Origin: Candidatus Saccharimonadota bacterium
Lineage (GTDB): Bacteria; Patescibacteriota; Patescibacteriia; 2-12-FULL-60-25
Reading direction: 5' to 3'
NCBI GenBank assembly: GCA_022843095.1
Contig: JALHOH010000002.1
Span: forward strand, 120,001 to 152,000
Length of the DNA: 32,000 bases
Of this stretch, positions 2,875 through 25,490 are shown piece after piece. The position numbers were made by a program, and so were the translations under genes. The notes beneath the pieces are model-generated. The model was given only the letters and a program-made list of their open reading frames with translations. It was not told the origin of the DNA and made no database searches. The number at the start of each line of letters is the position of its first letter. The stretch's first letter is position 1.

Positions 2875-2882
2875 GTGTAGGA

Positions 2883-2911: not shown

Positions 2912-2946
2912 GACCACGCACTGTTTTGGAAAGAAGGAGAGTTGAG

Positions 2947-3501: not shown

Positions 3502-3510
3502 GTTTCGATG

Positions 3511-3566: not shown

Positions 3567-3594
3567 AAAACTCCCCCATGAGGAGGTGGAGGAG

Positions 3595-4320: not shown

Positions 4321-4405
4321 AGGTGCCTCCGTGGGTCACATCGTCCTGGAACATGATGTCTCCGTCAAGATGACAGATGTGCGCATACCCGTCACAATCT
4401 CCGCC

Positions 4406-7375
4406 ATGGAATCTTTGCTTGAGAATCTGAACGCCGCACAGGCTGCGGCGGTGACCCATGAAACCGGGCCGCTTTTGATCGTTGCCGGTGCGGGGACGGG
4501 GAAGACCACGGTGTTGACCCGTCGGTATGCCCATTTGCTTACGCACGGCAAAACGCCGGACGGAAAGTCGCTCAAGCCGGAACATGTCCTGGCCGTGACG
4601 TTTACCGAAAAAGCCGCAGGGGAGTTGGAAGATCGTGTGCTGCAACTTTTGCCGACTGGCACCTACGACTTTTGGATTCACACGTTTCACGGGTTTTGCC
4701 AACGCGTTTTGGAGGCGCATGCGCTGGAGATCGGGTTGCCGAATGAATTTAAGCTGGTGACACCGACGGATGCGTGGCTTTTGTTGCGTCGTCATACGCA
4801 CGAACTTCCGTTGAACCACTATCGCCCGCTTGGGAATCCGAATAAGTTTTTGCGTGGGCTTCTTTCGCATATTTCCAAAGCGAAGGACGAAGGGGTGACG
4901 CCCGAGCAGTATCTCGCGTTTGTGCAGAATGCTGTCCTGGACGGGGATGCCGAAGCGGCGGCCGGGGAGAAGGCGCGTCTGCAGGAAATTGCGGATCTGT
5001 ATTTTTTCTATCGTAAATTGCTGTTGGAAGAATCGGCCTTGGATTTTGGGGATCTGATTTTGGAGACGCTCCGCCTGTTTCGTGAACGCCCTGCTATTTT
5101 GGCGCAGTATCGCAAGCAATTCCGGTATGTGTTGGTGGACGAGTTTCAGGACACTAACTGGGCGCAATATGAGCTGATCAAACTCTTGGCGGGGACGGAG
5201 CGGAATCTTACGGTCGTCGGTGATGATGACCAGGCGATCTACAAGTTTCGTGGGGCGTCGCTTGCCAACATTTTGCAGTTCCGTGATGACTTTCCGGATG
5301 CGCGGACCGTGGCGCTGACGCAAAACTATCGGTCGTTTCGCGAGATTTTGGATGTGGCGTACGGCTTCATTAAAAAGAACGACCCGAATCGGTTGGAAGT
5401 GCGTCTTGCGGATACAGGGCTTTCCAAACAATTAGAGGCGATGCGGGGAGAGGGGGCGCGGATCCAGGTGAAGTGGCAAAAGACGGTGGATGATGAGGCG
5501 GATGCCGTGGCAGAAGAGATCAAACGCAAAAAGCAGGAAGAACCGGAAACACGGTGGGATGCGTTTGCGGTGTTGGTGCGTTCAAACGATAGCGCTGAGC
5601 CGTTTGTCCGAGCGTTTGAACGGCATGGGATCCCGTTTCAGTTCATGGCGTTGCGTGGGTTGTATGCAAAGCCCATCGTGTTGGATTTGATTGCGATGCT
5701 CTCCCTCGCCGATGGGTATCATGAAAGCAGTGCTGTGTGGCGTGTGCTTGCGATGCCCTGTTACGCCATGGGGGCAAAGGATATGGCAGAGCTTGTGCAT
5801 CATGCGAATCGCAAAGGCATTCCGTTGTGGTCGGCGGTCAAGAATGCGTCGTATCGGTTGCCGGAAACGCAGGTGTCCGAAGCAGGAATGAAGATCGCGG
5901 CAAAAATCGTGCAGGATGCGGATGGATTGGGGGAGGCGGCGCGACGCGAGCCACCGATGCGCGTGCTTCAACTCGCGTTGGATAAGTCGTTGTACTTAAA
6001 AACCGTGTTGAGTTGGGGAGAATCCGAAAAACGAGAGGCGATCCAGCATTTAAACGGGCTGGCAGATCGGATCAAGCGCTACGAACGTTCCACGCACGGG
6101 CCAACGCTGCGCGGATTCTTGGAGGAATTCCGTTTGGAGGTGGATTCCGGGGAGGAAGGGGCGTTGGATGCGGATCCGGAAGCCGGGCCGGAATTAGTGA
6201 AGATCCTGACCGTCCATGCGGCAAAAGGGTTGGAGTGGAAACATGTGTACTTGGTTTCGCTTGTGGAACAGCGGTTTCCGTCCCGGGCACGACCGGACGC
6301 CATTCCTTTGCCGGCGGGGTTGATTCAAGAGCGATTGCCTGAAGGTGATTTGCACCTGGAAGAAGAGCGCCGGTTGTTTTACGTGGCACTTACGCGGGCG
6401 CGCGATACGTTGACGCTCACGGGAGCTGTGAACTACGGCGGGACGCGTGACAAAAAGCCGTCGCCGTTTTTGGCAGAGGCGGGATTTGAGGTGCAGGTCG
6501 AAGCCGTACGGGGAGAGGATGCGCGTGGGCTTGAGCTTGCGCCACAGGTGGAAGAGGCGGATCCATTGCGACCGCATTTCGAGCTCAAACGACGGTTTAG
6601 CTTTACCCAGCTTGCCGCGTTTCGAAAATGTCCGTTGCAGTATAAATTTGCGCACCTGTATCGCATCCCGATTTTGGGGTCGTATCAAAAAAGTTTCGGG
6701 CAATCCGTCCACTTGGCGTTTCAGCGGATTTTGGAGATGCACAAATTGCGGACAAGCGCCGTGCAAGCTTCCTTGTTTGGAGGAGGGGCCGTCGAGGGAG
6801 GCTATCGGTCGCCCGGCGGGTTTACGGTGTCCGAAGAAGAGGCGGTGGAGTTGTTTGAAGACGCCTGGATTGATGAATGGTACCCAGATCGCCGGACGCA
6901 TGATGAATACTGGGCCAAGGGCAAGGCGGCGCTCAAGACATTTTGGCGCGCCTGCGCGGAACGGGCCCCAGACGTCGTCGAAATCGAAAAGGATTTTACG
7001 TTGTTGCTTGGCCAGCATTCCATCAAGGGAAAGATCGACCGCGTGGATCGCGTCCCAGACGGGTCGGTCGAAGTGTTGGACTATAAAACCGGCACCGCCA
7101 AAGAAGAATTGGGAACGGAAGATAAAGAGCAGCTTTGGTTGTACCAGATTGCCCTGGAAGAGCGGGGAGTCACTGTGTCTCGATTGGCGTACTGGTACGT
7201 GATCGACGGGGAGTTTCGGGAGGTGGAGCCGCTGAAAGAAAAGAAGCGCGCGGAATTCTTGGAGAAGCTGACCGAACGCATGGACGGGATTTTGCGGAGC
7301 GAGTTCCAGCCCACACCAGAGCCGTTTACCTGTAAGTTCTGCGACTTCAAAAACATCTGCGAGTTCCGAAAGTAA
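4406..7375 (+). CDS. UvrD/PcrA-family ATP-dependent DNA helicase fused to a C-terminal Cas4/AddB-like 4-Cys PD-(D/E)XK nuclease
   Basis: Helicase motifs: LNAAQAAAV, AGAGTGKTT (Walker A), VLVDEFQDTN, VVGDDDQAIYKFRGA, QNYRS, TVHAAKGLEWKHVYL, RRLFYVALTRA. Nuclease: FRKCPLQYKF ... GKIDRVDRV ... VEVLDYKTG ... FTCKFCDFKNIC. The start was chosen at ATG 4406 (MESLLENLNAAQ); GTG 4331 and ATG 4370 are alternatives. Confidence 0.9.
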   Translation: MESLLENLNAAQAAAVTHETGPLLIVAGAGTGKTTVLTRRYAHLLTHGKTPDGKSLKPEHVLAVTFTEKAAGELEDRVLQLLPTGTYDFWIHTFHGFCQRVLEAHALEIGLPNEFKLVTPTDAWLLLRRHTHELPLNHYRPLGNPNKFLRGLLSHISKAKDEGVTPEQYLAFVQNAVLDGDAEAAAGEKARLQEIADLYFFYRKLLLEESALDFGDLILETLRLFRERPAILAQYRKQFRYVLVDEFQDTNWAQYELIKLLAGTERNLTVVGDDDQAIYKFRGASLANILQFRDDFPDARTVALTQNYRSFREILDVAYGFIKKNDPNRLEVRLADTGLSKQLEAMRGEGARIQVKWQKTVDDEADAVAEEIKRKKQEEPETRWDAFAVLVRSNDSAEPFVRAFERHGIPFQFMALRGLYAKPIVLDLIAMLSLADGYHESSAVWRVLAMPCYAMGAKDMAELVHHANRKGIPLWSAVKNASYRLPETQVSEAGMKIAAKIVQDADGLGEAARREPPMRVLQLALDKSLYLKTVLSWGESEKREAIQHLNGLADRIKRYERSTHGPTLRGFLEEFRLEVDSGEEGALDADPEAGPELVKILTVHAAKGLEWKHVYLVSLVEQRFPSRARPDAIPLPAGLIQERLPEGDLHLEEERRLFYVALTRARDTLTLTGAVNYGGTRDKKPSPFLAEAGFEVQVEAVRGEDARGLELAPQVEEADPLRPHFELKRRFSFTQLAAFRKCPLQYKFAHLYRIPILGSYQKSFGQSVHLAFQRILEMHKLRTSAVQASLFGGGAVEGGYRSPGGFTVSEEEAVELFEDAWIDEWYPDRRTHDEYWAKGKAALKTFWRACAERAPDVVEIEKDFTLLLGQHSIKGKIDRVDRVPDGSVEVLDYKTGTAKEELGTEDKEQLWLYQIALEERGVTVSRLAYWYVIDGEFREVEPLKEKKRAEFLEKLTERMDGILRSEFQPTPEPFTCKFCDFKNICEFRK

Positions 7376-7387
7376 CGATCCTACATC

Positions 7388-7402
7388 ATTTTGCGACGCA
7401 AG
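7388..7402 (+). promoter_or_regulatory. Palindrome-containing motif ATTTTGCGACGCAAG (candidate operator), copy 1
   Basis: Exact 15-mer, also present on the minus strand at 28051-28065 and 28410-28424. The core TTGCGACGCAA is a 5-1-5 palindrome. It lies 45 nt upstream of ATG 7447. Confidence 0.45.
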
Positions 7403-7446
7403 CCGATGTTTAGACAGTCCAAGGTGCAACACGTACACTCACGCGT

Positions 7447-7737
7447 ATGTTTCAGCCCATCCGACGCATTTTGCCACAGGCCGTGCAATCCCACGGTCTT
7501 GGGGAGCAGATTACGACCACGCGGGTGCTGCAGGTGGCGCAGGAGGTGTGTCGGCGATTGTTTGGGGAGGAGAAGGCGGTGTTTTTTGAGCCGCTCTCGT
7601 TTGCGGCGGGGCAGCTAAAAATTAAAGCGCGGGGAGGCGCCGCGGCGCAGGAGTTGGTCACACGCGAAATCGCCTTCGTCAACGAGGTCAATCGCACGCT
7701 CGGCGAGCGCAAAGTGATCAAGATGCTGGTGGTATAG
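7447..7737 (+). CDS. DUF721 domain protein (DciA-like small protein)
   Basis: 96 aa. The pattern ILPQAV..HGLGEQI...VLQVAQEV..RLFGEE......PLSFAAGQLKIKARGGAAAQEL..RE..FVNEVN..LGE.KV matches the usual DUF721 layout. Confidence 0.6.
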   Translation: MFQPIRRILPQAVQSHGLGEQITTTRVLQVAQEVCRRLFGEEKAVFFEPLSFAAGQLKIKARGGAAAQELVTREIAFVNEVNRTLGERKVIKMLVV

Positions 7738-7743
7738 AAACTG

Positions 7744-7800
7744 GAAATCAAACACCCACCAACGCGAGTCCGAGCCGTGTGCTCGGGGCGTGGTGGGGTT
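7744..7800 (-). repeat. Hairpin repeat element, copy H2; intrinsic-terminator-like for the small ORF at 7810-8088
   Basis: GAAATCAAACACCCACCAACGCGAGTCCGAGCCGTGTGCTCGGGGCGTGGTGGGGTT. Outer stem CCCACCA/TGGTGGG plus CGC/GCG; inner stem CCGAGC/GCTCGG. On the minus strand it is followed by GUGUUUGAUUUCC. By eye it differs from H3 by one substitution and one 1-nt indel. Confidence 0.7.
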
Positions 7801-7809
7801 GCATTCGCG

Positions 7810-8088
7810 CTAGCGAGTGGAAGGGTATGCGACAAATGTTCGGTTGTCGCTGGACTTGATGAGAGGGTATCGCCTCCCATCCGGGGCTTGTTCGAACCCT
7901 GCGAGGTACTCGCCTTTGGCCAGAGAAAGTGCTCCAGCGTCGTTGCAAGCGTCCTCGATCATTCGATGCGTCAGATACCCAGAAGCATCGCGGTGCGCTT
8001 GACGCTTATCTTCTCGCAATTCTGCCAAGGCTCGTGCGTACTCTTCGCTGTTTTCAGGGGACAAAAGAGATTGCTCTTGTTTCGTCAT
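7810..8088 (-). CDS. Small protein, paralog A of a three-member family (92 aa, unknown function)
   Basis: ATG 8088 is preceded by GGAGGAGGG. The block SGYLTHRMIEDACNDAGALSLAKGEYLAGFEQAPDGRRYPLIKSSDNRTFVAY aligns with AGYLVHQAREDSLFATGAINPGDEISGYEQKPDGGSYPIISTQDGATYVLY of 15627-15863 and with DLIDAGEIDTSKGEYLARFDLSGDRLVFEIF of 13667-13900. Confidence 0.7.
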   Translation of the reverse strand: MTKQEQSLLSPENSEEYARALAELREDKRQAHRDASGYLTHRMIEDACNDAGALSLAKGEYLAGFEQAPDGRRYPLIKSSDNRTFVAYPSTR

Positions 8089-8118
8089 TGATCCCTCCTC
8101 CAAAAATGTACAATCGTA

Positions 8119-8147
8119 AATCTAGCGTATTTTGGGGATTTTGTCAA
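8119..8147 (-). promoter_or_regulatory. Consensus promoter TTGACA - 17 nt - TAGATT (cassette copy A)
   Basis: Minus strand reads ccccTTGACAaaatccccaaaatacgcTAGATTtacgattgtacatttttGGAGGAGGG. About 60 bp is shared with 13901-13962 and 15864-15918. Confidence 0.7.
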
Positions 8148-8217
8148 GGGGTGAGGGGCGAAGGAACGCGTTTCGTTTTCTGCGTAGAATCTTCGCGTGT
8201 GATACACTTCCTCATAG

Positions 8218-8607
8218 ATGACCTTTGCGTTGTTTTGCGCACTCATGGGAGTGACCTCGCTCTTGGCTTGGGGCGGTTGGGCGTACGTGATTTTTCTCAT
8301 TGACCCCTATGAAGCCGGTGCCCCGGGGCTTGCGCTGTTTTATATCACGTTGTTTGCGGCCCTGATCGGAACGTTTTCGTTGTTGGGGTTGCTGTATCGC
8401 ATCAAGTGGCTTGGACGTTCGCAGGTGTTGCTTCGTGAAGTGATGGTCGCGGTTCGTCATGGGGTGATGTTCGCGGCGGTCAGCGTCGTGTCGCTCGCGC
8501 TTGCCTCGCAGAATCTACTGACGTGGTGGAATGTGCTTGCGCTCTTCATCGTCACGGCGGTGGTAGAATATGGGTTTTTGTTGGTGCAGGAAGGACGAAG
8601 ACAATAA
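8218..8607 (+). CDS. Small integral membrane protein (129 aa, about 4 TM segments)
   Basis: Four hydrophobic stretches (ALFCALMGVTSLLAWGGWAYVIFLI, LALFYITLFAALIGTFSLLGLLY, GVMFAAVSVVSLALA, WWNVLALFIVTAVVEYGFLLV). It lies directly upstream of mreB. Confidence 0.6.
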   Translation: MTFALFCALMGVTSLLAWGGWAYVIFLIDPYEAGAPGLALFYITLFAALIGTFSLLGLLYRIKWLGRSQVLLREVMVAVRHGVMFAAVSVVSLALASQNLLTWWNVLALFIVTAVVEYGFLLVQEGRRQ

Positions 8608-8674
8608 TCCACGGGCGCGCTTTGACTTCCCCCTCCGCGGTTGTCACAGTTCCGGTTGAATTCCATCTCCCTGT

Positions 8675-9721
8675 ATGATCGGTTCTCTTTTTCGGCATTT
8701 CACCAAACAAATCGGCATCGATTTGGGGACGTCGCACACCATCGTGTACGTCAAAGGCAAGGGAATCGTCATCAACGAGTCCTCCGTGGTCGCGATTAAC
8801 CGCCGAACGGGGCAGGTGATGGCGGTCGGCGAAGAGGCACGCGGAATGCTGGGCAAAACGCCGCCGCATATCCAGGTGACCAAGCCATTGCAACGCGGGA
8901 TCATCGCGGATTTTGAGGTCACCGAAAAAATGATCCGTTATTTTTTTGATAAAGTGCACGACGACCATTCCCTGGTCATTCCGCGTCCGCGGGTGGTCGT
9001 CTCTGTCCCATTGGACGTGACGGAAGTCGAGCGAAAAGCCGTGTCAGACGCAACCACCGCCGCCGGCGCGCGAGAAGTGCTGCTTGTGGAAGAGCCGATC
9101 GCCGCCGCAATTGGCGCCGGCCTTGCGATCAGCGAATCCGTTGGAAACATGGTGGTGAACATCGGTGGAGGGACGACCGAAATCGCCGTGATCTCGTTGA
9201 ACGGGGTTGTCACGGCAAAAAGCATCTCCATCGCAGGGGATGAGCTCAACAAAAACATCGTCCAATACGCGCGTGACGTGTTTAATCTTTTGCTTGGAGA
9301 TCGTGTCGCGGAAGAGATCAAAATCGCCATCGGATCGGCGGTCGAGCTTGAAGAGCGGATGGAAACGTCCATGCGTGGTCGTGACTTGTTGTCGGGGTTG
9401 CCACGCGAAATCATGGTGAACGATGCGCAGATTCGCGAGGCGCTTGGGCGGAGTGTCAAAGCGATCGTGGAACATGTGAAATCGATTTTGGAGACCACGC
9501 CGCCTGAATTGGTGGCGGACATCTATCAGCGCGGGATTGTGCTGACCGGTGGCGGTGCGCTCCTGCGGGGGTTGGACGCCGCGATCTCGCGTGGAACGGG
9601 GTTGCCGGTCCGTGTCGCCGATGATCCAGCAACGGCGGTGGTGCGCGGATGCGGAGCGCTGTTGGATCTGCCAAAATTGCTTGAAGACGTTGCCTATCCC
9701 GCAACCGAGCGCATGACGTAA
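8675..9721 (+). CDS. mreB: Rod-shape-determining actin homolog MreB
   Basis: IGIDLGTSHTIVYVKGKGIVINESSVVA, KPLQRGIIADFE, VVVSVPLDVTEVERKAV, LLVEEPIAAAIGAG, VVNIGGGTTEIAVISL, GIVLTGGGALLRGLD. Confidence 0.95.
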   Translation: MIGSLFRHFTKQIGIDLGTSHTIVYVKGKGIVINESSVVAINRRTGQVMAVGEEARGMLGKTPPHIQVTKPLQRGIIADFEVTEKMIRYFFDKVHDDHSLVIPRPRVVVSVPLDVTEVERKAVSDATTAAGAREVLLVEEPIAAAIGAGLAISESVGNMVVNIGGGTTEIAVISLNGVVTAKSISIAGDELNKNIVQYARDVFNLLLGDRVAEEIKIAIGSAVELEERMETSMRGRDLLSGLPREIMVNDAQIREALGRSVKAIVEHVKSILETTPPELVADIYQRGIVLTGGGALLRGLDAAISRGTGLPVRVADDPATAVVRGCGALLDLPKLLEDVAYPATERMT

Positions 9722-9730
9722 GGTGCTTGT

Positions 9731-10540
9731 ATGAAGCCGTATCAGCGATGGTCGCTTGTTGTTTTGGCCGTCGTGGGCGGACTTTTTGTGTTGGTCGTGG
9801 GTGTTCTGCGGCCGCTGACCTCGCGGGTGCGGCAATGGTTTGTCCCGGTGACCGGCGTCTTGGCAGAAACGGCGCAGCAGCTGAATCAGACCTACGAGGA
9901 ACGCGCCGGGGTCCGAGACCATACCGTCGAAGAATTGGAGGCGCGTGTGACCGCGCTTGCCGTGGACTATGTTCGTCTGCGGGCGCTGGAAGAAGAGAAT
10001 GCCAACTTGCGAGCGCAGGCGAAGTTTTTAAACGACTCTGGCTTCGAAAGCGTGGGCGCGCGCGTCATCAACCGCGATATTCGCGAAGGACGTTCGTTGC
10101 TTACGGTCGATCGTGGCACCAAAGATGGCGTCGAGGTTGGTCAGGCGGTCGTGACGCGTGAAGGGGTTTTTGTGGGGAAGATTACCGAAGTGACAGAACG
10201 CATCTCTGTGATTTTATTGCTGACAGATCCAAAATCCCGTGTCGCGGCGGCGCTTGCGGATGCGACGGGTCTCTCGGGGATCGTGGAAGGCCGGGGGAAC
10301 GGAGCCGCGCAGCTTACGTATATCCCGGCGAATACGCCGATAGCGCGCGATCGGATTATTTTAACGGCAGGGACCGAAGAGAAGGTGCCGGGGAATCTGC
10401 CCTTTGCGCTTGTAAACGCCGTGGAAGGCAAACCAAACGATCCCTTTTTATCCGCGATCTTGGAACCGCTTGTCCCGCTCGAACGATTGGCGTTCGTGTC
10501 GATTCTGCGTCCGGCGGCGCTTGGTCCCATCCGGGAGTAA
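9731..10540 (+). CDS. mreC: Rod-shape-determining protein MreC
   Basis: N-terminal TM segment, then a coiled coil (LRALEEENANLRAQ), then VDRGTKDGVEVGQAVVTREGVFVGKITEV...SVILLLTDPKSRV. Positioned after mreB. Confidence 0.85.
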   Translation: MKPYQRWSLVVLAVVGGLFVLVVGVLRPLTSRVRQWFVPVTGVLAETAQQLNQTYEERAGVRDHTVEELEARVTALAVDYVRLRALEEENANLRAQAKFLNDSGFESVGARVINRDIREGRSLLTVDRGTKDGVEVGQAVVTREGVFVGKITEVTERISVILLLTDPKSRVAAALADATGLSGIVEGRGNGAAQLTYIPANTPIARDRIILTAGTEEKVPGNLPFALVNAVEGKPNDPFLSAILEPLVPLERLAFVSILRPAALGPIRE

Positions 10541-10546
10541 TGGCGT

Positions 10547-11071
10547 ATGTTACGCGTGTTTGCGTTATTGCTCGCCGCGTTCCTGCTTGCCTGTGTCGAG
10601 TGGGCATTTGTCCCATTTTTGCCACCGTTTTTGCGCGTCCATCCAGGACTTCCCGTGGTGGTGATGCTCGCCGTCACGACGCGTCGACGTTGGAGCACGG
10701 CATTCGCGCTGGCCTTCGGCGTCACGGTGGATTTGTTGTCGGTCGCGCGGCTTGAGCTTGCCACGGTGCGGATGGTTGCCATTGCGGTGTTCGTCCAACT
10801 CGTGCTTCGGTATATCCTGACCAACCGCTCTGTTTACGCGGTGGTTGCCCTGGGATTGGTCGCGCGGATTGTAGATTGGGTGCTGGTGCGTCTTGGAACC
10901 GTCATCGCGTCCGTTCTGGAAAGCACCTGGTTTGGGCCTGCTGTAGAAACCGCCTGGGTGCAGCAACTTTTGTGGGACGGATTTTTATTGATCTGGCTGT
11001 TCATTTTTTTCGCAACCTTCACGCAACGACTGACCAAAGCACGTTCTTGGACCGGATATGCCGACGACTAA
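10547..11071 (+). CDS. mreD: Rod-shape-determining protein MreD (polytopic membrane protein)
   Basis: 174-aa multi-TM protein in the canonical position between mreC and the PBP2 gene. The call rests mainly on context and hydrophobicity. Confidence 0.6.
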   Translation: MLRVFALLLAAFLLACVEWAFVPFLPPFLRVHPGLPVVVMLAVTTRRRWSTAFALAFGVTVDLLSVARLELATVRMVAIAVFVQLVLRYILTNRSVYAVVALGLVARIVDWVLVRLGTVIASVLESTWFGPAVETAWVQQLLWDGFLLIWLFIFFATFTQRLTKARSWTGYADD

Positions 11072-12992
11072 CCAGCGCTACTTTACCCCCGGACCGGCGC
11101 GTCCGGATTTGCGCGTGCAAGACGTGGGGTCGTTGGATGTGCGTCAGGAGGTATTGTATGAAGAGCAGCAGACGCGCATCACGCATCGGCCGTTGTATGT
11201 GGGGACGGCGTTTTCTCCTCGACGGTTTTTGATGGCCGGGATCGGATGCGCCGTGCTTTTGGTGGCGCTCATGGGTCGCGCGTTTTCGATGCAAATCCTG
11301 GACCAAGAAGCGTTTGCGGCGCTTGCGGATAACAATCGTCTGCGCACTATTCCCGAGTGGCCAAGAAGAGGCATCATCCGCGATCGCCAAGGGGCAATCC
11401 TTGCAGATAATACGACGCGCTTTCAGGTGTTGTTGACCCCGCGAGATGTGCCACAAGCGCCGGATGATCAGCAGATCATTCTGGGAAACGCCGCGCGGTT
11501 GCTTGGGATCTCGATCCGAGATTTGGATCCGCTGGTGCATGTGACGGGGACGGCGCGAGATGAACCGGTGCTCGTGGCAGACCAGGTGGGATATGCGCAG
11601 GCCATGGCGTTTGCCATTGAGGAGCCGGAATTGCCGGGCTTTCGCCTGATCGTCCGTCCGCGCCGGCGTTACCCGTTGAGCGAGCACATCCCCAGTCTTT
11701 CACACGTGCTTGGGTATGTGGGACGCATTTCGGAAGAGGAATACGGTCGGTTGCGCGCGCAGGATTATCGCCGCGCGGATGAGTTGGGAAAAACGGGGAT
11801 CGAACGCGCGTATGAGTCGGCGCTACGCGGAACGATGGGAAAGGAGACGCGCGAGGTGGATGCACGCGGACGCGCAAAGGCGACCGTCGGGCGAGAACCT
11901 GCCGTGGATGGACAGGACATTGTGTTGTCCTTGGATGCTGAACTACAAGAACGTGCCGAAAAGGCGTTGCGTGCGGGACTTGTCACAGCAAAGACCACAC
12001 GCGGTGCCGTGATCGCTATGGATCCGCGAGATGGGTCCGTGCTCGCCGCGGTGTCGTGGCCTGCGTACAACAACAACCAGTTTGCGGGGAGTGTGAGCTC
12101 CACGGTGTATCGCGCGTTGGTGCAGAATCCGGACCAGCCGTTGTTTCCGCGTGCCTGGGCAGGGACCTATCCGTCCGGTTCGACAGTGAAGATCGTGATG
12201 AGTGCGGCGGCGCTTGCGGAGAAGATCATTACGCCGAACACGACGGTGCATTCGACGGGAGGGATTCGGTTGGGTCCGTGGTTTTTTCCGGACTGGAAAG
12301 CGGGTGGGCACGGGGTCGTGAATGTGAAGGGCGCAATCGCGTGGTCCGTGAACACCTTCTTCTACACGATCGGCGGAGGTACGGAGGCCTTTCAGGGTCT
12401 TGGGATCGATCGGATGGAGGCGTGGCTCCGCGCGTTTGGGATGGGCGAGAAGACGGGAATCGATGTGGCGGGAGAAGGAACGGGATTCGTTCCGTCCAAG
12501 GCGTGGAAGGAGCGCGTCAAAAAGGTGAAGTGGTTTGTCGGGGATTCGTACAACCTCTCCATCGGCCAGGGAGATTTGTTGGTGACGCCGCTTCAAGTCG
12601 CGCTTTACACCTCGATGATCGCGAACGGCGGATATCGCGTGACCCCGCACGTCTCAAAACAGGGTGTGCCTCGGCCGGAACATCCTGTGGTCAGCCAAGA
12701 CGTGTTACAGGTTGTCCGGGATGGGATGCGAGAAACGGTGACGGTGGGGTCTGGGCGCGCGCTTGCAACCATGGCGTTCCCGGTGTCTGGAAAAACGGGG
12801 ACGGCACAGTGGAACTCAAATAAGAATACGCACGCCTGGTTTACGGCGTTTGCGCCGTCGCCGTCTCCGGAGGTGGTTGTGACCGTGCTTTTGGAAGAAG
12901 GGGGAGAAGGGTCTGCTGTCGCGGTGCCGGTTGCGCGCCAGGTGCTTGAGGCCTGGTGGTCGCTTCGGGAGGCGCGGGGAGGGAGTTTTTAG
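11058..12992 (+). CDS. mrdA: Penicillin-binding protein 2 (elongation-specific transpeptidase)
   Basis: TM anchor, a PBP dimerisation region, then the transpeptidase motifs SGSTVK (SxxK), SVN (SxN) and KTGTAQ (KTG). Follows mreBCD. Confidence 0.88.
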   Translation: MPTTNQRYFTPGPARPDLRVQDVGSLDVRQEVLYEEQQTRITHRPLYVGTAFSPRRFLMAGIGCAVLLVALMGRAFSMQILDQEAFAALADNNRLRTIPEWPRRGIIRDRQGAILADNTTRFQVLLTPRDVPQAPDDQQIILGNAARLLGISIRDLDPLVHVTGTARDEPVLVADQVGYAQAMAFAIEEPELPGFRLIVRPRRRYPLSEHIPSLSHVLGYVGRISEEEYGRLRAQDYRRADELGKTGIERAYESALRGTMGKETREVDARGRAKATVGREPAVDGQDIVLSLDAELQERAEKALRAGLVTAKTTRGAVIAMDPRDGSVLAAVSWPAYNNNQFAGSVSSTVYRALVQNPDQPLFPRAWAGTYPSGSTVKIVMSAAALAEKIITPNTTVHSTGGIRLGPWFFPDWKAGGHGVVNVKGAIAWSVNTFFYTIGGGTEAFQGLGIDRMEAWLRAFGMGEKTGIDVAGEGTGFVPSKAWKERVKKVKWFVGDSYNLSIGQGDLLVTPLQVALYTSMIANGGYRVTPHVSKQGVPRPEHPVVSQDVLQVVRDGMRETVTVGSGRALATMAFPVSGKTGTAQWNSNKNTHAWFTAFAPSPSPEVVVTVLLEEGGEGSAVAVPVARQVLEAWWSLREARGGSF

Positions 12993-12996
12993 CCCG

Positions 12997-13026
12997 TTGA
13001 CATCGTTTTGAGCGTATAGGTATTCT
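12997..13026 (+). promoter_or_regulatory. Sigma70-like promoter TTGACA - 18 nt - TATTCT upstream of greA
   Basis: TTGACA at 12997-13002 and TATTCT at 13021-13026. Confidence 0.5.
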
Positions 13027-13088
13027 AGGATCAGTCGTCATTGCGCGGTCCTCCCGCGTTTTTCATTCCCTTTCTCTTTCGCATTCGT

Positions 13089-13559
13089 ATGGCCAACGTC
13101 CAATACGTCTCCGCCGAACGGCTGGAGCTCCTCAAGCAAGAACTTAAAGAACTGAAGACGGTGAAGCGCAAGGAGCTGGTCGAGCGGATCGAGGCGGCAA
13201 AGGCGTTGGGCGATCTGTCTGAGAACGCGGAATACCATGAAGCCAAGGATGCGATGTCGCTGCTGGAAGGGCGCATCTTTGAACTGGATGAATTGTTCAA
13301 GAACGTCCAGGTGATCGAAGCGCCAGCGGCCGGGGACAAAACGGGGAACGTGCGTGTGGGTTCGACGGTGAAGGTCGAAGTGAACGGTAAAGAAAAAACG
13401 TTCCAGATTGTGGGATCGAACGAAGCGGATCCACTCACGGGCAAGATCTCCAATGAATCACCCATCGGAAGCGCGCTCTTGGGATCCAAGGCAGGAGAGG
13501 CGGTGGAGGTGACGACGCCAGGTGGCACGACCGTGTACACCATCAAACACGTGGAATAA
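13089..13559 (+). CDS. greA: Transcription elongation factor GreA
   Basis: The start MANVQYVSAERLELLKQELKELK...ALGDLSENAEYHEAKD...VRVGSTVKV is a typical GreA N-terminal coiled coil plus C-terminal FKBP-like domain. The track ORF begins upstream at 13041 with a non-ATG codon. Confidence 0.92.
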   Translation: MANVQYVSAERLELLKQELKELKTVKRKELVERIEAAKALGDLSENAEYHEAKDAMSLLEGRIFELDELFKNVQVIEAPAAGDKTGNVRVGSTVKVEVNGKEKTFQIVGSNEADPLTGKISNESPIGSALLGSKAGEAVEVTTPGGTTVYTIKHVE

Positions 13560-13560
13560 C

Positions 13561-13592
13561 AAAAAAGCCCCCTCTGTCATGGAGGGGTTTTG
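13561..13592 (+). terminator. Rho-independent terminator after greA
   Basis: AAAAAAG CCCCTC tgtcatg GAGGGG TTTTG: a 6-bp GC stem, a 7-nt loop and a T-run. The upstream A-run makes it potentially bidirectional. Confidence 0.75.
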
Positions 13593-13648
13593 AAAATCAA
13601 ATACCCCGCCGATCTACACGCACGTATTGCGTCTAGTCTCGGACGGGG
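13593..13648 (-). terminator. Divergent member of the hairpin element, downstream of small ORF B
   Basis: On the minus strand CCCCGTCCGA ... TCGGCGGGG is followed by TATTTGATTTTCAAAA. This is the same trailing G(U/G)UUUGAUUUUC box as at 7744-7760 and 15555-15570. Confidence 0.5.
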
Positions 13649-13666
13649 CTTAGCTTCAAAGAGAGT

Positions 13667-13900
13667 TTACTCTTTTTCTTCCGCTTGTTCCTTCGTGGGG
13701 CGGAAGATCTCGAAAACGAGGCGATCACCAGAGAGATCAAAGCGGGCAAGGTACTCGCCCTTGCTTGTGTCAATCTCTCCTGCGTCGATGAGATCCCTCT
13801 CTGCCATCTGTTTGGCAAAAAGCGGTGCAGCCTCCGTGTTTGCTTGCAACCGTCGCCTCTGCACGCTCTTCAACCACTCCTCATGCTCTGGGTCACTCAT
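13667..13900 (-). CDS. Small protein, paralog B of the three-member family (77 aa)
   Basis: ATG 13900 is preceded by GGAGGAGGGTGAG, with the same promoter and 5'UTR as copies A and C. It shares the DAG..(x)..KGEYLA(R/G)F block with paralog A. Confidence 0.65.
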   Translation of the reverse strand: MSDPEHEEWLKSVQRRRLQANTEAAPLFAKQMAERDLIDAGEIDTSKGEYLARFDLSGDRLVFEIFRPTKEQAEEKE

Positions 13901-13930
13901 CTCACCCTCCTCCAAAAAAGTACAATCGTA

Positions 13931-13959
13931 AATCTAGCGGATTTTGGGGATTTTGTCAA
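13931..13959 (-). promoter_or_regulatory. Consensus promoter TTGACA - 17 nt - TAGATT (cassette copy B)
   Basis: tgtcaa at 13954-13959 and aatcta at 13931-13936 on the plus strand, with a 17-nt spacer. Confidence 0.7.
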
Positions 13960-14047
13960 GGGGGAAGCGAGAAGAGGCGTAATGCGAGGGGGACGGGAAT
14001 CCTGGTTGTTTGCGCCCGGGCTTCTTCGCTGGCATGATGGCGTGCAT
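13960..14047 (+). promoter_or_regulatory. Conserved leader shared by lysS and serS (function unknown)
   Basis: Aligned by eye to 15915-16014, this region has identical blocks of 24, 34 and 11 nt. They are separated by three substitutions and one divergent 11-nt block, and the similarity ends at the start codons. Confidence 0.5.
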
Positions 14048-15541
14048 ATGTTGGATGAACGTTCTGTACGGTTAGAGAAGCTCGCAGCCTTGCGCGAGAC
14101 AGGGATCGAGCCCTATGCCACGGATCCACGTCGCACCGCCTTGATTCAGGAGGCGCAGGCGTCATTTGAAGCGTGGATGACCGAGGCGAAAGAGCTGACC
14201 TTTGCCGGACGCATTCGCACCATTCGCGTCCATGGCGGGATGATGTTTGCAGACTTGGAGGATGAATCCGGGAAGATGCAGTTGGCATTTAAGGTGGACG
14301 AGATCGGGGAGGAGCTATTTAACCGGTTCCGCGACCGGATGGATCCGGGAGATATCGTGGAGGCGACGGGGGTGTTGTTTTTGACCAAGCGTGGGGAGCG
14401 TTCGCTTGGGGTGAAAGGGTGGCGTCCGCTTGCGAAGGCGTTGCTGCCGTTGCCGGAAAAGTGGCATGGGCTTCAGGACGTGGAAACGCGGTCCCGAGAA
14501 CGTGAGCTGGATCTATTGTCTAACCCAGAGGTGAAGCGCCGGTTTTTGGTGCGTAGCAAGATGGTGGCGGCGATGCGTGCGTTTTTGGATGCGCGTGCCT
14601 TTATCGAGGTGGAAACGCCGATGCTGCACCCGATTGCCGGAGGCGCAAACGCCAAACCATTCGTGACCCATCACAATGCGCTGGATGCCGACTTCTTTTT
14701 GCGCATTGCGCCGGAGCTCTATCTCAAGCGATTGGTGGTCGGAGGATTTGAGAAGGTGTTTGAGATCGCGCGTTGTTTTCGGAACGAAGGGATTGACTAT
14801 GCGCACAACCCGGAGTTCACGCAGATCGAATTGTACTGGGCGTATGCGGACAAGGACGCGTTTTTGGGATTCTTGGAAGAGATGATGGTGCACATGATTC
14901 GCGAGGCGACGGGAGGGCTTGAGGTGATCCAGGAGGAAAAGACGCTGCACTTCCAGTTGCCGTGGCCAAAAGTGACGTTCCGCGATGCGATCCACACGGC
15001 CTGCGGGATCGACATTGATGCGCTGGCGACGCCTAGCGAGGTTGTGGCCGCCGCGACGCGCGTGGGGCTTAAAATCGATTTCTCACGGTGTATCGGGCTT
15101 GGGGAGCACCTGGATGAGCTGTACAAAAAAACGGCGCGTCCTGCGATGCGTCGTCCGACGTGGGTGCTGGACTATCCGATCGAACTCAAGCCACTCGCCA
15201 ATCGGAAGCCGGGTGATCCGACCAAGGCAGCGGTGGCACAGCTGGTGGTCGAAGGCGCGGAGGTCGTGAATGCCTACTACCACGAATTGCATGATCCGCT
15301 GGATCAGCGTGAACGGTTTGAGCAACAACAGTCGTTGCGCGAACAGGGGAGCGAAGAGGCGCAGGCGATGGATGAAGGCTTTTTGCGCGCCTTGGAACAT
15401 GGGATGCCACCCACCTGCGGGATGGGAATGGGGATCGACCGATTGGCGGCGCTCGTCACGGGGAGTCCAAACCTCAAAGAGGTGATCCTGTTCCCCACGT
15501 TGCGTCCAGAAGGCGCAACCAGCGAAGAAAACAAGGCCTAA
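14048..15541 (+). CDS. lysS: Lysine--tRNA ligase (class II)
   Basis: MLDERSVRLEKLAALRETGIEPY..., an OB anticodon-binding region, then class II motifs: FIEVETPMLHPIAGGANAKPF, FRNEGIDYAHNPEFTQIELY, GMGMGIDRL. The track ORF start at 13685 runs through the divergent small gene and promoter and is not used. Confidence 0.93.
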   Translation: MLDERSVRLEKLAALRETGIEPYATDPRRTALIQEAQASFEAWMTEAKELTFAGRIRTIRVHGGMMFADLEDESGKMQLAFKVDEIGEELFNRFRDRMDPGDIVEATGVLFLTKRGERSLGVKGWRPLAKALLPLPEKWHGLQDVETRSRERELDLLSNPEVKRRFLVRSKMVAAMRAFLDARAFIEVETPMLHPIAGGANAKPFVTHHNALDADFFLRIAPELYLKRLVVGGFEKVFEIARCFRNEGIDYAHNPEFTQIELYWAYADKDAFLGFLEEMMVHMIREATGGLEVIQEEKTLHFQLPWPKVTFRDAIHTACGIDIDALATPSEVVAAATRVGLKIDFSRCIGLGEHLDELYKKTARPAMRRPTWVLDYPIELKPLANRKPGDPTKAAVAQLVVEGAEVVNAYYHELHDPLDQRERFEQQQSLREQGSEEAQAMDEGFLRALEHGMPPTCGMGMGIDRLAALVTGSPNLKEVILFPTLRPEGATSEENKA

Positions 15542-15554
15542 CCGCCTTGTTTTT

Positions 15555-15612
15555 TGAAAATCAAACACCCACCAACGCGAGTCCGAGCCGTGTGCTCGTG
15601 GCGTGGTGGGGT
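15555..15612 (-). repeat. Hairpin repeat element, copy H3; terminator-like for the small ORF at 15627-15863
   Basis: GAAAATCAAACACCCACCAACGCGAGTCCGAGCCGTGTGCTCGTGGCGTGGTGGGGTT. On the minus strand the hairpin is followed by GUGUUUGAUUUUCAAAAAA. Confidence 0.7.
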
Positions 15613-15626
15613 TGCGCCGTCAGGGG

Positions 15627-15863
15627 TTAGCCTGAGGCAGTGGGAGCTTGGTACAGGACATACGTCGCTCCGTCTTGTGTTGAAATGATGGGATAACTGC
15701 CCCCATCAGGTTTCTGTTCGTAGCCAGAGATCTCGTCTCCGGGGTTGATCGCACCTGTTGCAAAGAGACTGTCCTCCCTGGCCTGATGAACGAGATACCC
15801 TGCAGCAGTACGGTCCGCAGCGCGGTAGATGGCTCGGAGACGTGCGTTTTTTTGGACACTCAT
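15627..15863 (-). CDS. Small protein, paralog C of the three-member family (78 aa)
   Basis: ATG 15863 is preceded by GGAGGAGGGTTTCTC. The sequence MSVQKNARLRAIYRAADRTAAGYLVHQAREDSLFATGAINPGDEISGYEQKPDGGSYPIISTQDGATYVLYQAPTASG aligns with paralog A. Confidence 0.7.
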   Translation of the reverse strand: MSVQKNARLRAIYRAADRTAAGYLVHQAREDSLFATGAINPGDEISGYEQKPDGGSYPIISTQDGATYVLYQAPTASG

Positions 15864-15885
15864 GAGAAACCCTCCTCCAAAAAAG

Positions 15886-15914
15886 TACAATCGTAAATCT
15901 ACCGGATTTTGGGG
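15886..15914 (-). promoter_or_regulatory. Consensus promoter TTGACA - 17 nt - TAGATT (cassette copy C)
   Basis: tgtcaa at 15909-15914 and aatcta at 15886-15891 on the plus strand, with a 17-nt spacer. Confidence 0.7.
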
Positions 15915-16014
15915 ATTTTGTCAAGGGGGAAGCGAGAAGAGGTGTAGCGCGAGGGGGACGGGAATCCTGGTTGTTTGCGCCCTTTTTGCGGCGCTGGCAT
16001 GATGACCCACATCT
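15915..16014 (+). promoter_or_regulatory. Conserved leader shared by serS and lysS (function unknown)
   Basis: See 13960-14047. The common sequence is GGGGGAAGCGAGAAGAGG.GTA..GCGAGGGGGACGGGAATCCTGGTTGTTTGCGCCC ... CTGGCATGATG. Confidence 0.5.
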
Positions 16015-17283
16015 ATGCTGGACCCAAAATATATCCGCGAACATGCGGAGGAGATCAAAACGAACGTGGCGCGTCGCGGGGTTGCGGTGGATGTGGATGC
16101 GTTTCTTGCGTTGGATGCGGACCGTTTGGCGATGCTCCAGGCCGTGGAAGCGCTACGTAAAGAGCGCAACCAGGTCGCCGAGCAGATGAAATCCGCGTCG
16201 GCGGAGGCGCGTCCGGCGTTGATTGAGCAGGGCAAGCAGCTCAAAGAAACGCTCGCCTCCAAAGAAGATGGGCTTGCGCTGCTCGAGGCAGAATGGCGTG
16301 CGCGTTTGCTCACGATCCCAAACCTGACGCATCCGGACGCGCCGGTCGGGAACACCGATGCGGACAACAAAGAGGTGGCGCAGGTCGGGACCATCCGGAA
16401 GCTCGCGTCGCCAAAATCTCATGTGGAATTGGCGGCAAAACATGATCTCATCGATTTTGAACGTGGGGCAAAAGTGGCGGGCGCGAAGTTTTATTTTTTG
16501 AAGGGCAAGCTTACGCTATTGGAGCAAGCGCTCATTAACTGGGCGTTGCAGGAATTGGTGAAGGAGGGGTATCAGCCCATCTCGACGCCGGATTTGGCAA
16601 AAGATGACGTGTTGGTGGGGACGGGATTTAACCCGCGCGGTCCGGAAACGCAGATTTATTCCATCGAGAACTCGGATCTTTCGCTCATCGGGACGGCAGA
16701 GATCACGCTTGGGGGCTTGCACAAGGATGAGGTGTTGGATGAAGCGCAATTGCCACTCAAGTACGCCGGGATTTCGCACTGCTATCGCACCGAAGCCGGG
16801 ACGTATGGCAAGGAATCCTACGGGCTGTATCGCGTCCACCAGTTTTCCAAGGTGGAGATGTTTGTGTATGCGGCGCCGTGGCAATCCAACGCCGTGCATG
16901 CGGAACTGCGTCGCATCGAGGAGATGTTGTTTACGAAGCTCGGCATTCCGTATCGCGTGGTCGATATTTGCACCGGAGATCTTGGCGGGCCGGCCTACCG
17001 CAAGTGGGATTTGGAAGCGTGGATGTGGGGGCGTGGCAACGGAAGCGGCGATTGGGGGGAAGTGACCAGCACGTCCAACTGCACTGACTATCAGGCGCGC
17101 CGATTGAACTGCAAGGTGCGTAAACAGGACGGTTCCATCGAATTTGTGCACACGTTGAATGGAACGGCGGTCTCGCTTGCCCGGTGTTTGATCGCTCTGC
17201 TCGAAAATCACCAGCAAGAAGACGGGAGCATCGCGGTGCCAGAATGTTTGCGTCCGTTTTGTGGGTTTGATCGCATTGGCTAA
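16015..17283 (+). CDS. serS: Serine--tRNA ligase
   Basis: MLDPKYIREHAEEIK..., a long N-terminal coiled-coil arm, then class II motifs: YAGISHCYRTEAG, FSKVEMF, TLNGTAVSLARCLIALLENHQ. Confidence 0.95.
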   Translation: MLDPKYIREHAEEIKTNVARRGVAVDVDAFLALDADRLAMLQAVEALRKERNQVAEQMKSASAEARPALIEQGKQLKETLASKEDGLALLEAEWRARLLTIPNLTHPDAPVGNTDADNKEVAQVGTIRKLASPKSHVELAAKHDLIDFERGAKVAGAKFYFLKGKLTLLEQALINWALQELVKEGYQPISTPDLAKDDVLVGTGFNPRGPETQIYSIENSDLSLIGTAEITLGGLHKDEVLDEAQLPLKYAGISHCYRTEAGTYGKESYGLYRVHQFSKVEMFVYAAPWQSNAVHAELRRIEEMLFTKLGIPYRVVDICTGDLGGPAYRKWDLEAWMWGRGNGSGDWGEVTSTSNCTDYQARRLNCKVRKQDGSIEFVHTLNGTAVSLARCLIALLENHQQEDGSIAVPECLRPFCGFDRIG

Positions 17284-17289
17284 CCCGGT

Positions 17290-18432
17290 ATGCCTCGCCA
17301 CAAGACCTGGGTGGAGGTCAGCAAACGCGCGCTCCTTGCAAATTACGAGGCGATGCGCGCGCTTGTCGCCCCGACACAGGTCATGGCGGTCGTGAAGGCA
17401 AACGCGTACGGCCATGGACTTGTAGAGGTCGCCTCAGCGCTGCAGGACGCGCAGGTGCCTTGGTTTGGCGTGGATTGGGCCGACGAAGCGCTGACGCTTC
17501 GGGCGAACGGGATTTCTGCCAAGATTCTGGTGCTTGGATACACCCCCGCCGAGCGGATGAAAGAATTGGTGGACGCGGAGATCTCGTTTGTCGTGTACAC
17601 GCAAGCCATGTTGGAAGCTGCGAGCGCCGCCGGGAACGCGGCGGGGAAGCGGGCACGCATCCATCTGAAAGTCGAAACCGGATTGCATCGCCAAGGGATT
17701 GGGCTTACGGAATTTGAGGCGTTTGTCGATCGAGCGTTGATGCTAACGCACGTCGAAATTGAGGGGATCTCCACGCACTACGCAAACATCGAAGATACGG
17801 AAGATGCATCGTATGCCACGCAACAACTTAAGGCGTTCCAGCGTGCCAACAGTATTTTACGACGCAAGACAGAAGGGCGCCCGCTGGTTGCTCATACGGC
17901 GTGCAGTGCCGCGGCGGCGCTCTTTCCTGAAACACGGTTTGATGTGGTGCGCGAGGGGATTATGTTGTACGGACTGTGGTCCAGCGAACGCACGGAACGC
18001 GCGGCAAAACGCGCACACCTGGATCTTGCTCTGGAACCTGTTTTAACGTGGAAAACGATTGTGGCACAGGTAAAACCCGTCAAAGCAGGTGAACCGGTGA
18101 GTTACGGCCTCACAGAACGGATGGTACGGGATGGATCCATCGCGGTGCTTCCCATCGGCTATGCGGACGGATTTGATCGCGTCGGGATGTCGGGGAAGGG
18201 GACGGTGCTGATTCGTGGACAGCGATGCAAGGTGATCGGACGTGTCTGTATGAATATGTGCATGGTCGACGTGTCACACGTGGAGGGGGCAGAAGAGGGG
18301 GACGAAGTGGTACTGCTTGGGACGCAAGGAAACAACCAAATTACGGCCGAAGAGCTGGCAGCACAGTGCGAAACCATCGCCTACGAAATCGTGGCGCGCA
18401 TCAATCCGTTGTTTCCGCGTACAATAATGTAA
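17290..18432 (+). CDS. alr: Alanine racemase
   Basis: The PLP-lysine motif AVVKANAYGHG is present, with later VREGIMLYGLWS and VSYG...IAVLPIGYADG. Length is typical. Confidence 0.9.
   Translation: MPRHKTWVEVSKRALLANYEAMRALVAPTQVMAVVKANAYGHGLVEVASALQDAQVPWFGVDWADEALTLRANGISAKILVLGYTPAERMKELVDAEISFVVYTQAMLEAASAAGNAAGKRARIHLKVETGLHRQGIGLTEFEAFVDRALMLTHVEIEGISTHYANIEDTEDASYATQQLKAFQRANSILRRKTEGRPLVAHTACSAAAALFPETRFDVVREGIMLYGLWSSERTERAAKRAHLDLALEPVLTWKTIVAQVKPVKAGEPVSYGLTERMVRDGSIAVLPIGYADGFDRVGMSGKGTVLIRGQRCKVIGRVCMNMCMVDVSHVEGAEEGDEVVLLGTQGNNQITAEELAAQCETIAYEIVARINPLFPRTIM
17848..17868 (+). repeat. 21-nt perfect direct repeat, copy 1 (inside alr)
   Basis: AACAGTATTTTACGACGCAAG is identical to 18435-18455 and contains the A-variant of the ATTTTGCGACGCAAG motif. 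Confidence 0.8.
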
Positions 18433-25456: not shown

Positions 25457-25490
25457 CAAAAAACAACGCCCGTGTGGCGTTGTTTATTTA
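25457..25490. terminator. Bidirectional rho-independent terminator
   Basis: AAACAACGCC cgtgt GGCGTTGTTT (10-bp stem, 25461-25485) is flanked by an A-run on the left and ATTTAT on the right. On the minus strand it is followed by TTTTTGCTT. It overlaps the stop codon of 25484-25789. Confidence 0.75.

Follow-up and report, generated by a model that had tools for sequence, protein, structure and literature searches.

Three copies of a small-gene unit, here called A, B and C, lie on the minus strand of a 32,000-nt stretch of contig JALHOH010000002.1 from a Candidatus Saccharimonadota bacterium; this whole stretch is referred to as the window, and all coordinates and module copy counts refer to it unless another contig is named. 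Each unit has its own promoter-like sequence, 5′ untranslated region (5′UTR), Shine–Dalgarno (SD) sequence, short open reading frame (ORF) and 3′ hairpin, and the sequence, pattern scans, ORF evidence and hairpin evidence agree with the original prediction that the three loci share one architecture of self-contained monocistronic units. Unit A (7738–8217) separates the dciA stop (7737) from a conserved gene X (start 8218) by 480 nt, unit B (13560–14047) the greA stop (13559) from the lysS start (14048) by 488 nt, and unit C (15542–16014) the lysS stop (15541) from the serS start (16015) by 473 nt. The surrounding genes are all on the plus strand and encode TGT, AddA, DciA, X (129 aa), MreB, MreC, MreD, PBP2, GreA, LysS, SerS and Alr. 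As had been remarked, two of the three copies stand beside aminoacyl-tRNA synthetase (aaRS) genes, B being divergent from lysS, and C divergent from serS and convergent with lysS.

The closest genomes found via LysS, L001 (66% identity) and L002 (62%), are both uncultured metagenome-assembled genomes, the second labelled as Patescibacteria group, and both contain the array in the same order and strand (TGT-AddA-DciA-X-MreBCD-PBP2-GreA-LysS-SerS-Alr). The dciA/X gap is 12 nt in L001 compared to 480 nt in the window, the greA/lysS gap is 12 nt in L001 and 11 nt in L002 compared to 488 nt, and the lysS/serS gap is 5 nt in L001 compared to 473 nt. Gaps of 5–12 nt in the relatives identify all three units as antisense insertions of about 480 nt, and a profile search detected no family member at the L001 or L002 locus. 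Immediately upstream of the lysS and serS ATGs, a few bases still look like the spacers of L001. As the window, L001 and L002 lineages are about equidistant, it is more parsimonious to assume that the window lineage acquired the units than that they were lost precisely and repeatedly elsewhere. Their position beside aaRS genes is explained by insertion into a conserved greA-lysS-serS operon and not by a demonstrated functional link. The dciA–X gap of L002 (about 4300–4500 of that contig) holds a different element, resembling a miniature inverted-repeat transposable element (MITE), with perfect inverted arms of ~34 nt (GGGCTCCGTTGGACAAGTATTTTTTGTCCTACAG ... and its reverse complement); this site therefore accepts insertions, and the dciA/X junction may be an insertion hot spot.

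All three ORFs are real genes and belong to a rare small-protein family. ORF A (7810–8088, minus strand, 92 aa) and ORF C (15627–15863, minus strand, 78 aa), which is of the same subtype as A, with the pattern 'AAGYL.H ... PDG..YP.I', match each other in BLASTP at 1e-17 with 43% identity over 67 aa, and A matches ORF B (13667–13900, minus strand, 77 aa, the 'AAPL...GEYLA.F' subtype) at 6e-8 with 28% identity. The relatedness claimed for the three proteins is significant for these two pairs, and one family profile matches all three ORFs, but B and C have no direct BLASTP match. Only the minus-strand ORFs match the family profile, and plus-strand ORFs overlapping the units (e.g. 13590–13931 and 7777–8091) were rejected; so was a 71-aa ORF running through promoter A (8085–8300), which overlaps conserved gene X and has no family-profile match. 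Between A and C, the differences per codon position are 0.49, 0.41 and 0.67, and the NG86 estimates are dN 0.62 and dS 1.96, with pS 0.70 (near saturation) and a dN/dS of about 0.3, showing that the pair is old and under purifying selection.

A profile of the three proteins gave 25 matches among 1.84 billion representative proteins; ~20 of these are true small-protein relatives with the motif ADR.AA[GP].L..Q.AED.L..AG.ID...GEYL....DG, and the rest are repeat-protein false positives. Word-indexed searches of 5.8 billion clusters returned only 13–14 members, all of them without a name or a Pfam domain, and homologues elsewhere number about 20–35. Back-translated patterns gave no confirmed relatives in JGI metagenome contigs or IMG/VR. 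The proteins lie, as proposed, outside any described family, with no significant match at curated thresholds in Pfam, NCBIfam, PHROGs, PADLOC or PDB sequences. AlphaFold predicted the same fold plan for A (pLDDT 83, helix 15–50 plus three strands) and B (pLDDT 84, helix 4–39 plus a β-hairpin), namely a long N-terminal helix followed by a β-hairpin or three-stranded sheet, and Foldseek found no significant match to these models (best E-values 0.26 in PDB, 0.11 in BFVD and 1.3 in PDB for the model of B). Most family members are acidic and hydrophilic. The units also differ from type II toxin–antitoxin and defence loci in being monocistronic, with housekeeping neighbours and no PADLOC match.

These results bear on a reading of the units as non-coding RNA genes or chance ORFs, in which the conserved ends would mark a small RNA family with a variable middle. 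Conserved ends around a variable centre are indeed known in some small RNA families, and the ORFs are short and without a known domain. However, the substitutions are coding-like (dN/dS about 0.3), unrelated contigs encode homologous proteins that share a conserved motif, the AlphaFold models are confident and a perfect SD stands 5–8 nt before each ATG. Rfam gave no match at gathering scores over the whole window or even at E ≤ 1 over 7400–16300, and a tRNA search was also empty. We regard this explanation as extremely improbable.

Upstream of the ORFs lies a 60-nt block (8092–8151 in A, 13904–13963 in B and 15869–15928 in C, all on the minus strand) with a pairwise identity of 93–98%. It consists of CCCC-TTGACA, a 17-nt spacer, TAGATT, a U-rich leader of ~25 nt and the SD GGAGGAGGG, and the ATG follows 5–8 nt after it in each unit. 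The −35, −10 and SD of A are at 8142–8147, 8119–8124 and 8093–8101, those of B at 13954–13959, 13931–13936 and 13905–13913, and those of C at 15919–15924, 15896–15901 and 15870–15878; locus C had been drawn to end at 15914, which is too short and leaves its −35 just outside. A 40-nt core, TTGACAAAATCCCCAAAATCCGCTAGATTTACGATTGTAC, is found with at most one mismatch at three minus-strand sites (8108–8147, 13920–13959 and 15885–15924), compared to an expectation of 0 from shuffled sequences. In a simple sigma-70 hexamer scoring of 10.5 kb (7000–17500), the TTGACA-17-TAGATT sites have the top score, 10/12, equalled only by the greA site. The SD:anti-SD duplex, calculated with a generic anti-SD sequence, has −12.5 kcal/mol in the units compared to +0.5 to −7 for conserved neighbours. 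The near-identical block with a −35, a 17-nt spacer, a −10 and a strong SD is therefore present as originally described, and we predict it to be an active promoter.

The strong SD sets the units apart from the array around them. Conserved array genes are essentially without an SD (e.g. those starting at 1753, 7447, 8675, 14048, 16015 and 17290), and the other strong SDs in the window precede only non-conserved small ORFs (2947, 25789 and 28759). A promoter-like TAGACA-17-TACACT ends 7 nt upstream of the dciA ATG, which points to leaderless starts in this genome. These features suggest that SD-independent or leaderless initiation may be the norm here. Several conserved plus-strand genes start 7–11 nt after a −10-like hexamer. 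Among the small SD-led ORFs are ones of 101 aa (25484–25789, minus strand), 91 aa (28484–28759, minus strand; hydrophobic, possibly a membrane protein) and 76 aa (28155–28385, minus strand), of which the first two have SD duplexes of −15 to −16 kcal/mol; none of the three has a Pfam match or the 60-nt block.

At the other end of the units, a GC-rich hairpin stands downstream of each ORF, with a (G/A)TTTGATTT(T/C)C tract after it, so that the proposed order of small ORF, hairpin and box is found in all three, with a hairpin of different sequence in B. Intrinsic (Rho-independent) terminators consist of a GC-rich stem-loop directly before a U-rich tract, and by their sequence the units have both. 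The hairpins of A (7742–7802, minus strand, with the box GTTTGATTTCC) and C (15555–15615, with the box GTTTGATTTTC) are 97% identical over 61 nt. In unit B the 3′ region (13561–13650, minus strand) keeps the same layout and box, with a first hairpin at 13603–13650, the box ATTTGATTTTCAAAA at 13588–13602, and a second hairpin with a T-run at 13561–13587 that would double as the greA terminator on the plus strand. The scan found stems at 7754–7769 and 15567–15582, each followed by GTTTGATTT, and at 13569–13587, followed by GCTTTTTTGT, and the hairpins have fold z-scores of −2.8 to −5.7. The 3′ region of unit C (15528–15615, minus strand) also includes a 10-bp perfect stem (15528–15537/15544–15553), which is terminator-like on both strands because one arm is formed by the last lysS codons.

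A third copy of the A/C hairpin module lies at 3512–3559 on the plus strand, opposite to A and C, and was found by nhmmer (E 5e-10), an inverted-repeat scan and blastn; it has 88% identity over 48 nt, and 97% over a 36-nt core. Its start is 10 nt downstream of the stop codon that ends an unrelated 184-aa ORF (2947–3501, plus strand); this ORF has its own promoter-like TTGACA-17-TACAGA (about 2884–2912) and SD AAGGAGAG. The position of this copy after an unrelated gene indicates a reusable terminator module, similar to repetitive extragenic palindromic (REP) elements, and not a private part of the small-gene unit. The 184-aa ORF is within a further lineage-specific insertion in the TGT–AddA interval (2875–4330), as these two genes are adjacent in L001. 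A second ORF of no assigned function (to 4356) follows it, with an annotated ATG at 3508 just upstream of the hairpin; since the hairpin would fall within its first codons, translation of this ORF probably begins further downstream. The ORFs of this insertion have no Pfam or PADLOC match.

Upstream of the −35, units B and C have ~75 nt more in common, a stretch that reaches toward the aaRS start codons and brings their shared sequence to 136 nt at 92% identity. This extension, which we call S1, lies at 13964–14039 in B and 15929–16004 in C and contains, on the plus strand, the hexamers TTGCGC-17-TGgCATGAT (TTGCGC at 14010–14015 and −10 at 14033–14038 in B; TTGCGC at 15975–15980 and TGgCATGAT at 15998–16003 in C), which end 9 nt upstream of the ATG of lysS in B and 11 nt upstream of that of serS in C. 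Both hexamers are kept between B and C, with 9 nt of the spacer replaced. S1 is thus a candidate outward promoter, which could produce a near-leaderless lysS mRNA.

When the modules are compared separately, they group the units in conflicting ways. S1 unites B and C (identity 0.85, compared to 0.49 for A–B and 0.48 for A–C), whereas the coding DNA (A–B 0.52, A–C 0.55, B–C 0.50) and the 3′ region (A–B 0.59, A–C 0.88, B–C 0.60) unite A and C. The promoter/5′UTR/SD block is nearly the same in all pairs (A–B 0.95, A–C 0.93, B–C 0.98). The claim that the coding regions have diverged far more than the regulatory block is well borne out, with 50–55% compared to 93–98% identity. The flanks in the block differ at 2–7% of sites, whereas neutral flanks would be expected to be unalignable at a dS of about 2. 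Plain duplication followed by drift, which had been doubted from the start, is insufficient for a dS of about 2 next to a flank divergence of 3–7%.

This contrast could in principle be produced by purifying selection, if the units were old and the 60-nt block and hairpin were held near-invariant, for example as an operator and a translational control element. The spacer of the block contains a direct repeat, CAAAATCC-C-CAAAATCC, which could be a binding site, the identity falls sharply at the ORF boundaries, and the family promoters in two other contigs, L082 and L091, share TTGACAAAA...AAAT..GCTA with the window block. However, a promoter of similar TTGACAAAA-A-rich-TAGATT make-up stands before an unrelated gene of L091, so the likeness of the L082 and L091 promoters seems to reflect a lineage-wide promoter style and is weakened as proof of a specific operator. 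The orthologous L082 and L091 loci also provide a calibration. Between them, identity is 79% for the promoter together with the leader, 75% for the terminator and 66% for an internal leader, compared to 84% and 69% for the coding sequences; as these flanks diverge about as fast as the coding DNA, the near-identity in the window is better explained by recent copying than by constraint. Moreover, unit B has a hairpin of its own sequence, so that this element is evidently free to vary, and S1 is 85–92% identical between B and C, yet 48–49% identical to the corresponding stretch of A. Purifying selection by itself is therefore an improbable explanation.

Of the three causes that the original prediction had offered, namely selection, gene conversion and a mobile promoter-carrying cassette, the L082/L091 comparison favours copying by conversion or module reuse over selection alone. 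We consider it fairly probable, judging from these identity patterns, that the regulatory modules were recently copied between old paralogs by gene conversion or module reuse. The mobile cassette finds some support in that the units are insertions relative to two relatives and that the terminator recurs after an unrelated gene, but there is no sign of an insertion sequence (IS) or MITE.

We examined this last possibility against known mobile elements. MITEs and IS-derived elements have terminal inverted repeats, target-site duplications, and related copies or a parent IS; palindrome-associated transposable elements (PATEs), which derive from IS200/IS605, have subterminal hairpins at both ends, and a REP system has many palindromic copies with a RAYT gene. 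An integron cassette is a promoterless ORF with attC, arrayed beside an integrase and a common promoter. In the window, the three units have no terminal inverted repeats in common, no flanking direct repeats or target duplications were seen, and no transposase or integrase was present among the larger window ORFs scanned. The upstream ends of B and C fold no better than shuffles (z = 0.4, 1.0, −0.4 and 0.0), leaving a hairpin at the 3′ end only. Scans for the exact 60-nt block pattern found nothing in 185,579 reference genomes, in JGI metagenomes or in IMG/VR, the hairpin core pattern is likewise absent from IMG/VR, and neither blastn with the whole units nor tblastn with protein A matched phages or plasmids. 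These searches give nothing to identify the block as the end of a known IS or MITE. The units do not look like MITEs or PATEs, as no shared inverted repeats, right-end hairpin or target duplication were found, and they are not integron gene cassettes, because each has its own promoter and the units are dispersed, with no integrase domain in the larger ORFs scanned. The TTGAT in the 3′ box recalls an ISDra2-type target, but the order of hairpin and target and the absence of a second hairpin do not fit.

A non-autonomous cassette of ~480 nt could still have been moved in trans by a recombinase or transposase, its ends being needed for mobility and its ORFs being cargo alleles from a pool. The insertions are of similar size (480, 488 and 473 nt) and at gene boundaries of a conserved array, they have a common 3′ end motif, TG(A/G)AAATCAAA(C/T)ACCC on the plus strand, right after the stop codons of the neighbouring genes, and S1 ends within a few nucleotides of the apparent ancestral spacer before the lysS and serS ATGs. 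The MITE-like element in the dciA–X gap of L002 and the GIY-YIG mini-genes near family loci in two other contigs (L081 and L082, described below) would also agree with mobility. On the other hand, besides the absence of repeats, target duplications, a right-end hairpin in B and C, enzyme genes among the larger ORFs scanned, and copies in the databases searched, the modules are mosaic and do not move as one piece, and unit A is without the S1 sequence. We consider such a cassette unlikely. More speculatively, the units might be an undescribed small non-autonomous insertion cassette, in an uncultured and probably Patescibacteria-like lineage, that is polarity-neutral, entering essential operons in antisense, expressing its small protein by means of a strong promoter and SD of its own, unlike those of the host genes, terminating transcription on both sides and restoring the host gene by its outward promoter; the small proteins would then be selfish or host-modulating cargo, and the promoter and terminator would be parts of the vehicle and not products of conversion. 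This is, in our view, quite doubtful.

The family loci in other genomes show how the genes are arranged elsewhere. In five of the contigs (L082, L086, L088, L089 and L091), two or three paralogs are in one operon behind a single TTGACA-17 promoter, and L081 has two tandem copies, each after the same ~95-nt leader. This operon habit suggests that the paralogs act together. The neighbours are varied and include infA with ribosomal protein genes, tRNA genes, glutamyl-tRNA synthetase (GluRS), RuvC/YebC, LexA and an extracytoplasmic function (ECF) sigma factor; we found no partner gene conserved across the family loci and no accessory genes in common with the window.

A leader motif, GC.CTGCTCGATGGTCGGGT.G.GGCA.CAGG..., precedes family genes at L081 9560–9653 and 9905–10000 and at L084 8600–8683; it is duplicated before both L081 tandem paralogs, has no Rfam match and may be a conserved cis-regulatory RNA. 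A further motif, CTTTGT.T.CGATTGTGTCTCCC, is repeated in the spacers before downstream operon paralogs (L091 3010–3080 and 3365–3437; L082 3865–3936), and its CGATTGT core also occurs in the window 5′UTR (ACGATTGTAC), as a shared leader element or by chance. Free-standing GIY-YIG mini-genes of 64–96 aa are found near family loci (L081 4499–4789, 8141–8335 and 8520–8786; L082 4245–4496), and none was present among the window ORFs scanned. Translation-related genes (aaRS, infA with ribosomal-protein operons, tRNA) are often near family genes, in about 5/8 lineages, which in small genomes may be chance; the loci are the window (lysS, serS), L092 3430–4905, L086/L089/L090, and L081, L082 and L086, with L091 recognised by eye only. 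In one lineage (L084 7708–13440; L085), a 77-aa member and a 205-aa protein with an N-terminal family domain are clustered after an ECF sigma-factor gene, together with proteins of 346 aa and 938 aa without assigned function; longer family members of 205–224 aa are four in all (P0008, P0016, P0018 and P0021). The arginyl-tRNA synthetase of L081 is in two adjacent ORFs, a catalytic part (1287–1883) and a DALR anticodon-binding part (1889–2518), which is either a frameshift or a genuine split gene.

Returning to copying between old paralogs as the preferred explanation, we propose the following account. Three anciently diverged paralogs, each in a monocistronic unit of ~480 nt, would have been inserted in antisense in the window lineage. 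Modules would have been copied between the loci, namely the promoter/5′UTR/SD block among A, B and C, S1 between B and C, and the terminator hairpin between A, C and the unrelated gene, most likely by short-tract gene conversion or recombination, with the diverged coding sequences acting as barriers to copying. As a result, the three paralogs would be transcribed and translated at the same high rate under the same control, and the matched promoters may replace the co-expression that the relatives obtain from an operon of two or three paralogs, which would agree with joint action of the proteins. Each antisense, terminator-bearing insertion would cut the old operon, and S1 could provide a new outward promoter near the lysS and serS starts, by which the essential downstream genes would stay expressed. 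Our working guess for the proteins is that they are abundant, oligomerising small cytoplasmic proteins acting together, possibly as hetero-oligomers.

Several considerations weigh against this proposal. Gene conversion is read from the identity pattern, and tracts that end close to both ORF ends could also reflect selection. The promoters, terminators, outward promoter and translation are all predictions, and the outward promoter is a weak one, with 4/6 per hexamer and 8/12 in total, below the scan threshold, while the stretch upstream in unit A matches the S1 extensions at only 48–49%. Losses could in principle also explain why L001 and L002 are without the units, the copy numbers of the modules are those of a 32-kb window, and the joint action of the paralogs is suggested by the operon arrangement in other genomes.

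The reuse of promoters and terminators is itself precedented. Putative mobile promoters, as described by Matus-Garcia, Nijveen and van Passel (2012; summarised in PMC3575422), are upstream sequences of at least 80% identity over at least 50 nt within the same genome, followed by dissimilar coding DNA and attached to no known mobile element, with their origin by recent duplication or selection left open. The units resemble them in having highly similar upstream DNA without a known mobile element, at 93–98% identity over 60 nt in all three pairs and 92% over 136 nt in B–C, although the block, at about −5 to −70 relative to the ATG, only partly overlaps the −150 to −50 region used in that study. 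A coding DNA identity of 50–55% would pass a nucleotide filter, but the proteins are distant paralogs of one family (28–43% amino acid identity) and not products of unrelated genes. The units moreover reuse a −10, the whole 5′UTR and the SD, plus a terminator module and a divergent-side extension, and they have been inserted within a conserved operon.

The lipoprotein genes of the Borrelia erp ('upstream homology box') family offer another comparison, as these paralogs have diverse coding regions behind conserved promoter/operator DNA, are co-expressed and are thought to derive from one promoter/leader joined to diverse coding sequences (PMC10016077). In contrast to the chromosomal units dispersed among housekeeping genes, however, the erp loci are allelic on multiple near-identical cp32 prophage plasmids, their conserved part reaches into the signal peptide whereas the unit proteins are probably cytoplasmic, and the regulators of erp are known (PMC10016077); the two have no sequence relation. 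Repeated extragenic elements of the REP, Correia and ERIC type carrying promoters or terminators are also named in PMC3575422. Unlike Correia or ERIC elements, the promoter block is non-palindromic and without inverted-repeat ends. As for REP elements, the A/C hairpin is an imperfect palindrome just after stop codons and terminator-like; its copies, at least three of them within 32 kb, lie on either strand and follow unrelated genes. Finally, like insertion sequences with outward-facing promoters, the inserted DNA ends in a promoter-like site toward lysS and serS, but this promoter is a predicted one, and the units are without a transposase, inverted repeats or target duplication. What is new is the combination of reused modules around old paralogs of a new family, in antisense within an essential operon, and strong SD units in a genome whose core genes do not use an SD set the case apart.

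If the proposed copying is correct, the window would be a remarkably clear case from nature in which regulatory DNA, comprising promoter, leader, ribosome-binding site and terminator, was copied from one old paralog to another and left the coding sequences distinct. It would mean that a split gene family can hold matched expression without an operon, and that insertions into essential operons can be tolerable when they bring a replacement promoter. The family itself is new and very rare, with a few dozen sequences among billions and a confident predicted fold without a match. It appears to be built for high expression against a background of conserved window genes without SD sites, and would thus merit proteomic and functional work in uncultured bacteria with small genomes. 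The 60-nt block, if active, would offer a strong expression signal ready for use in such organisms.

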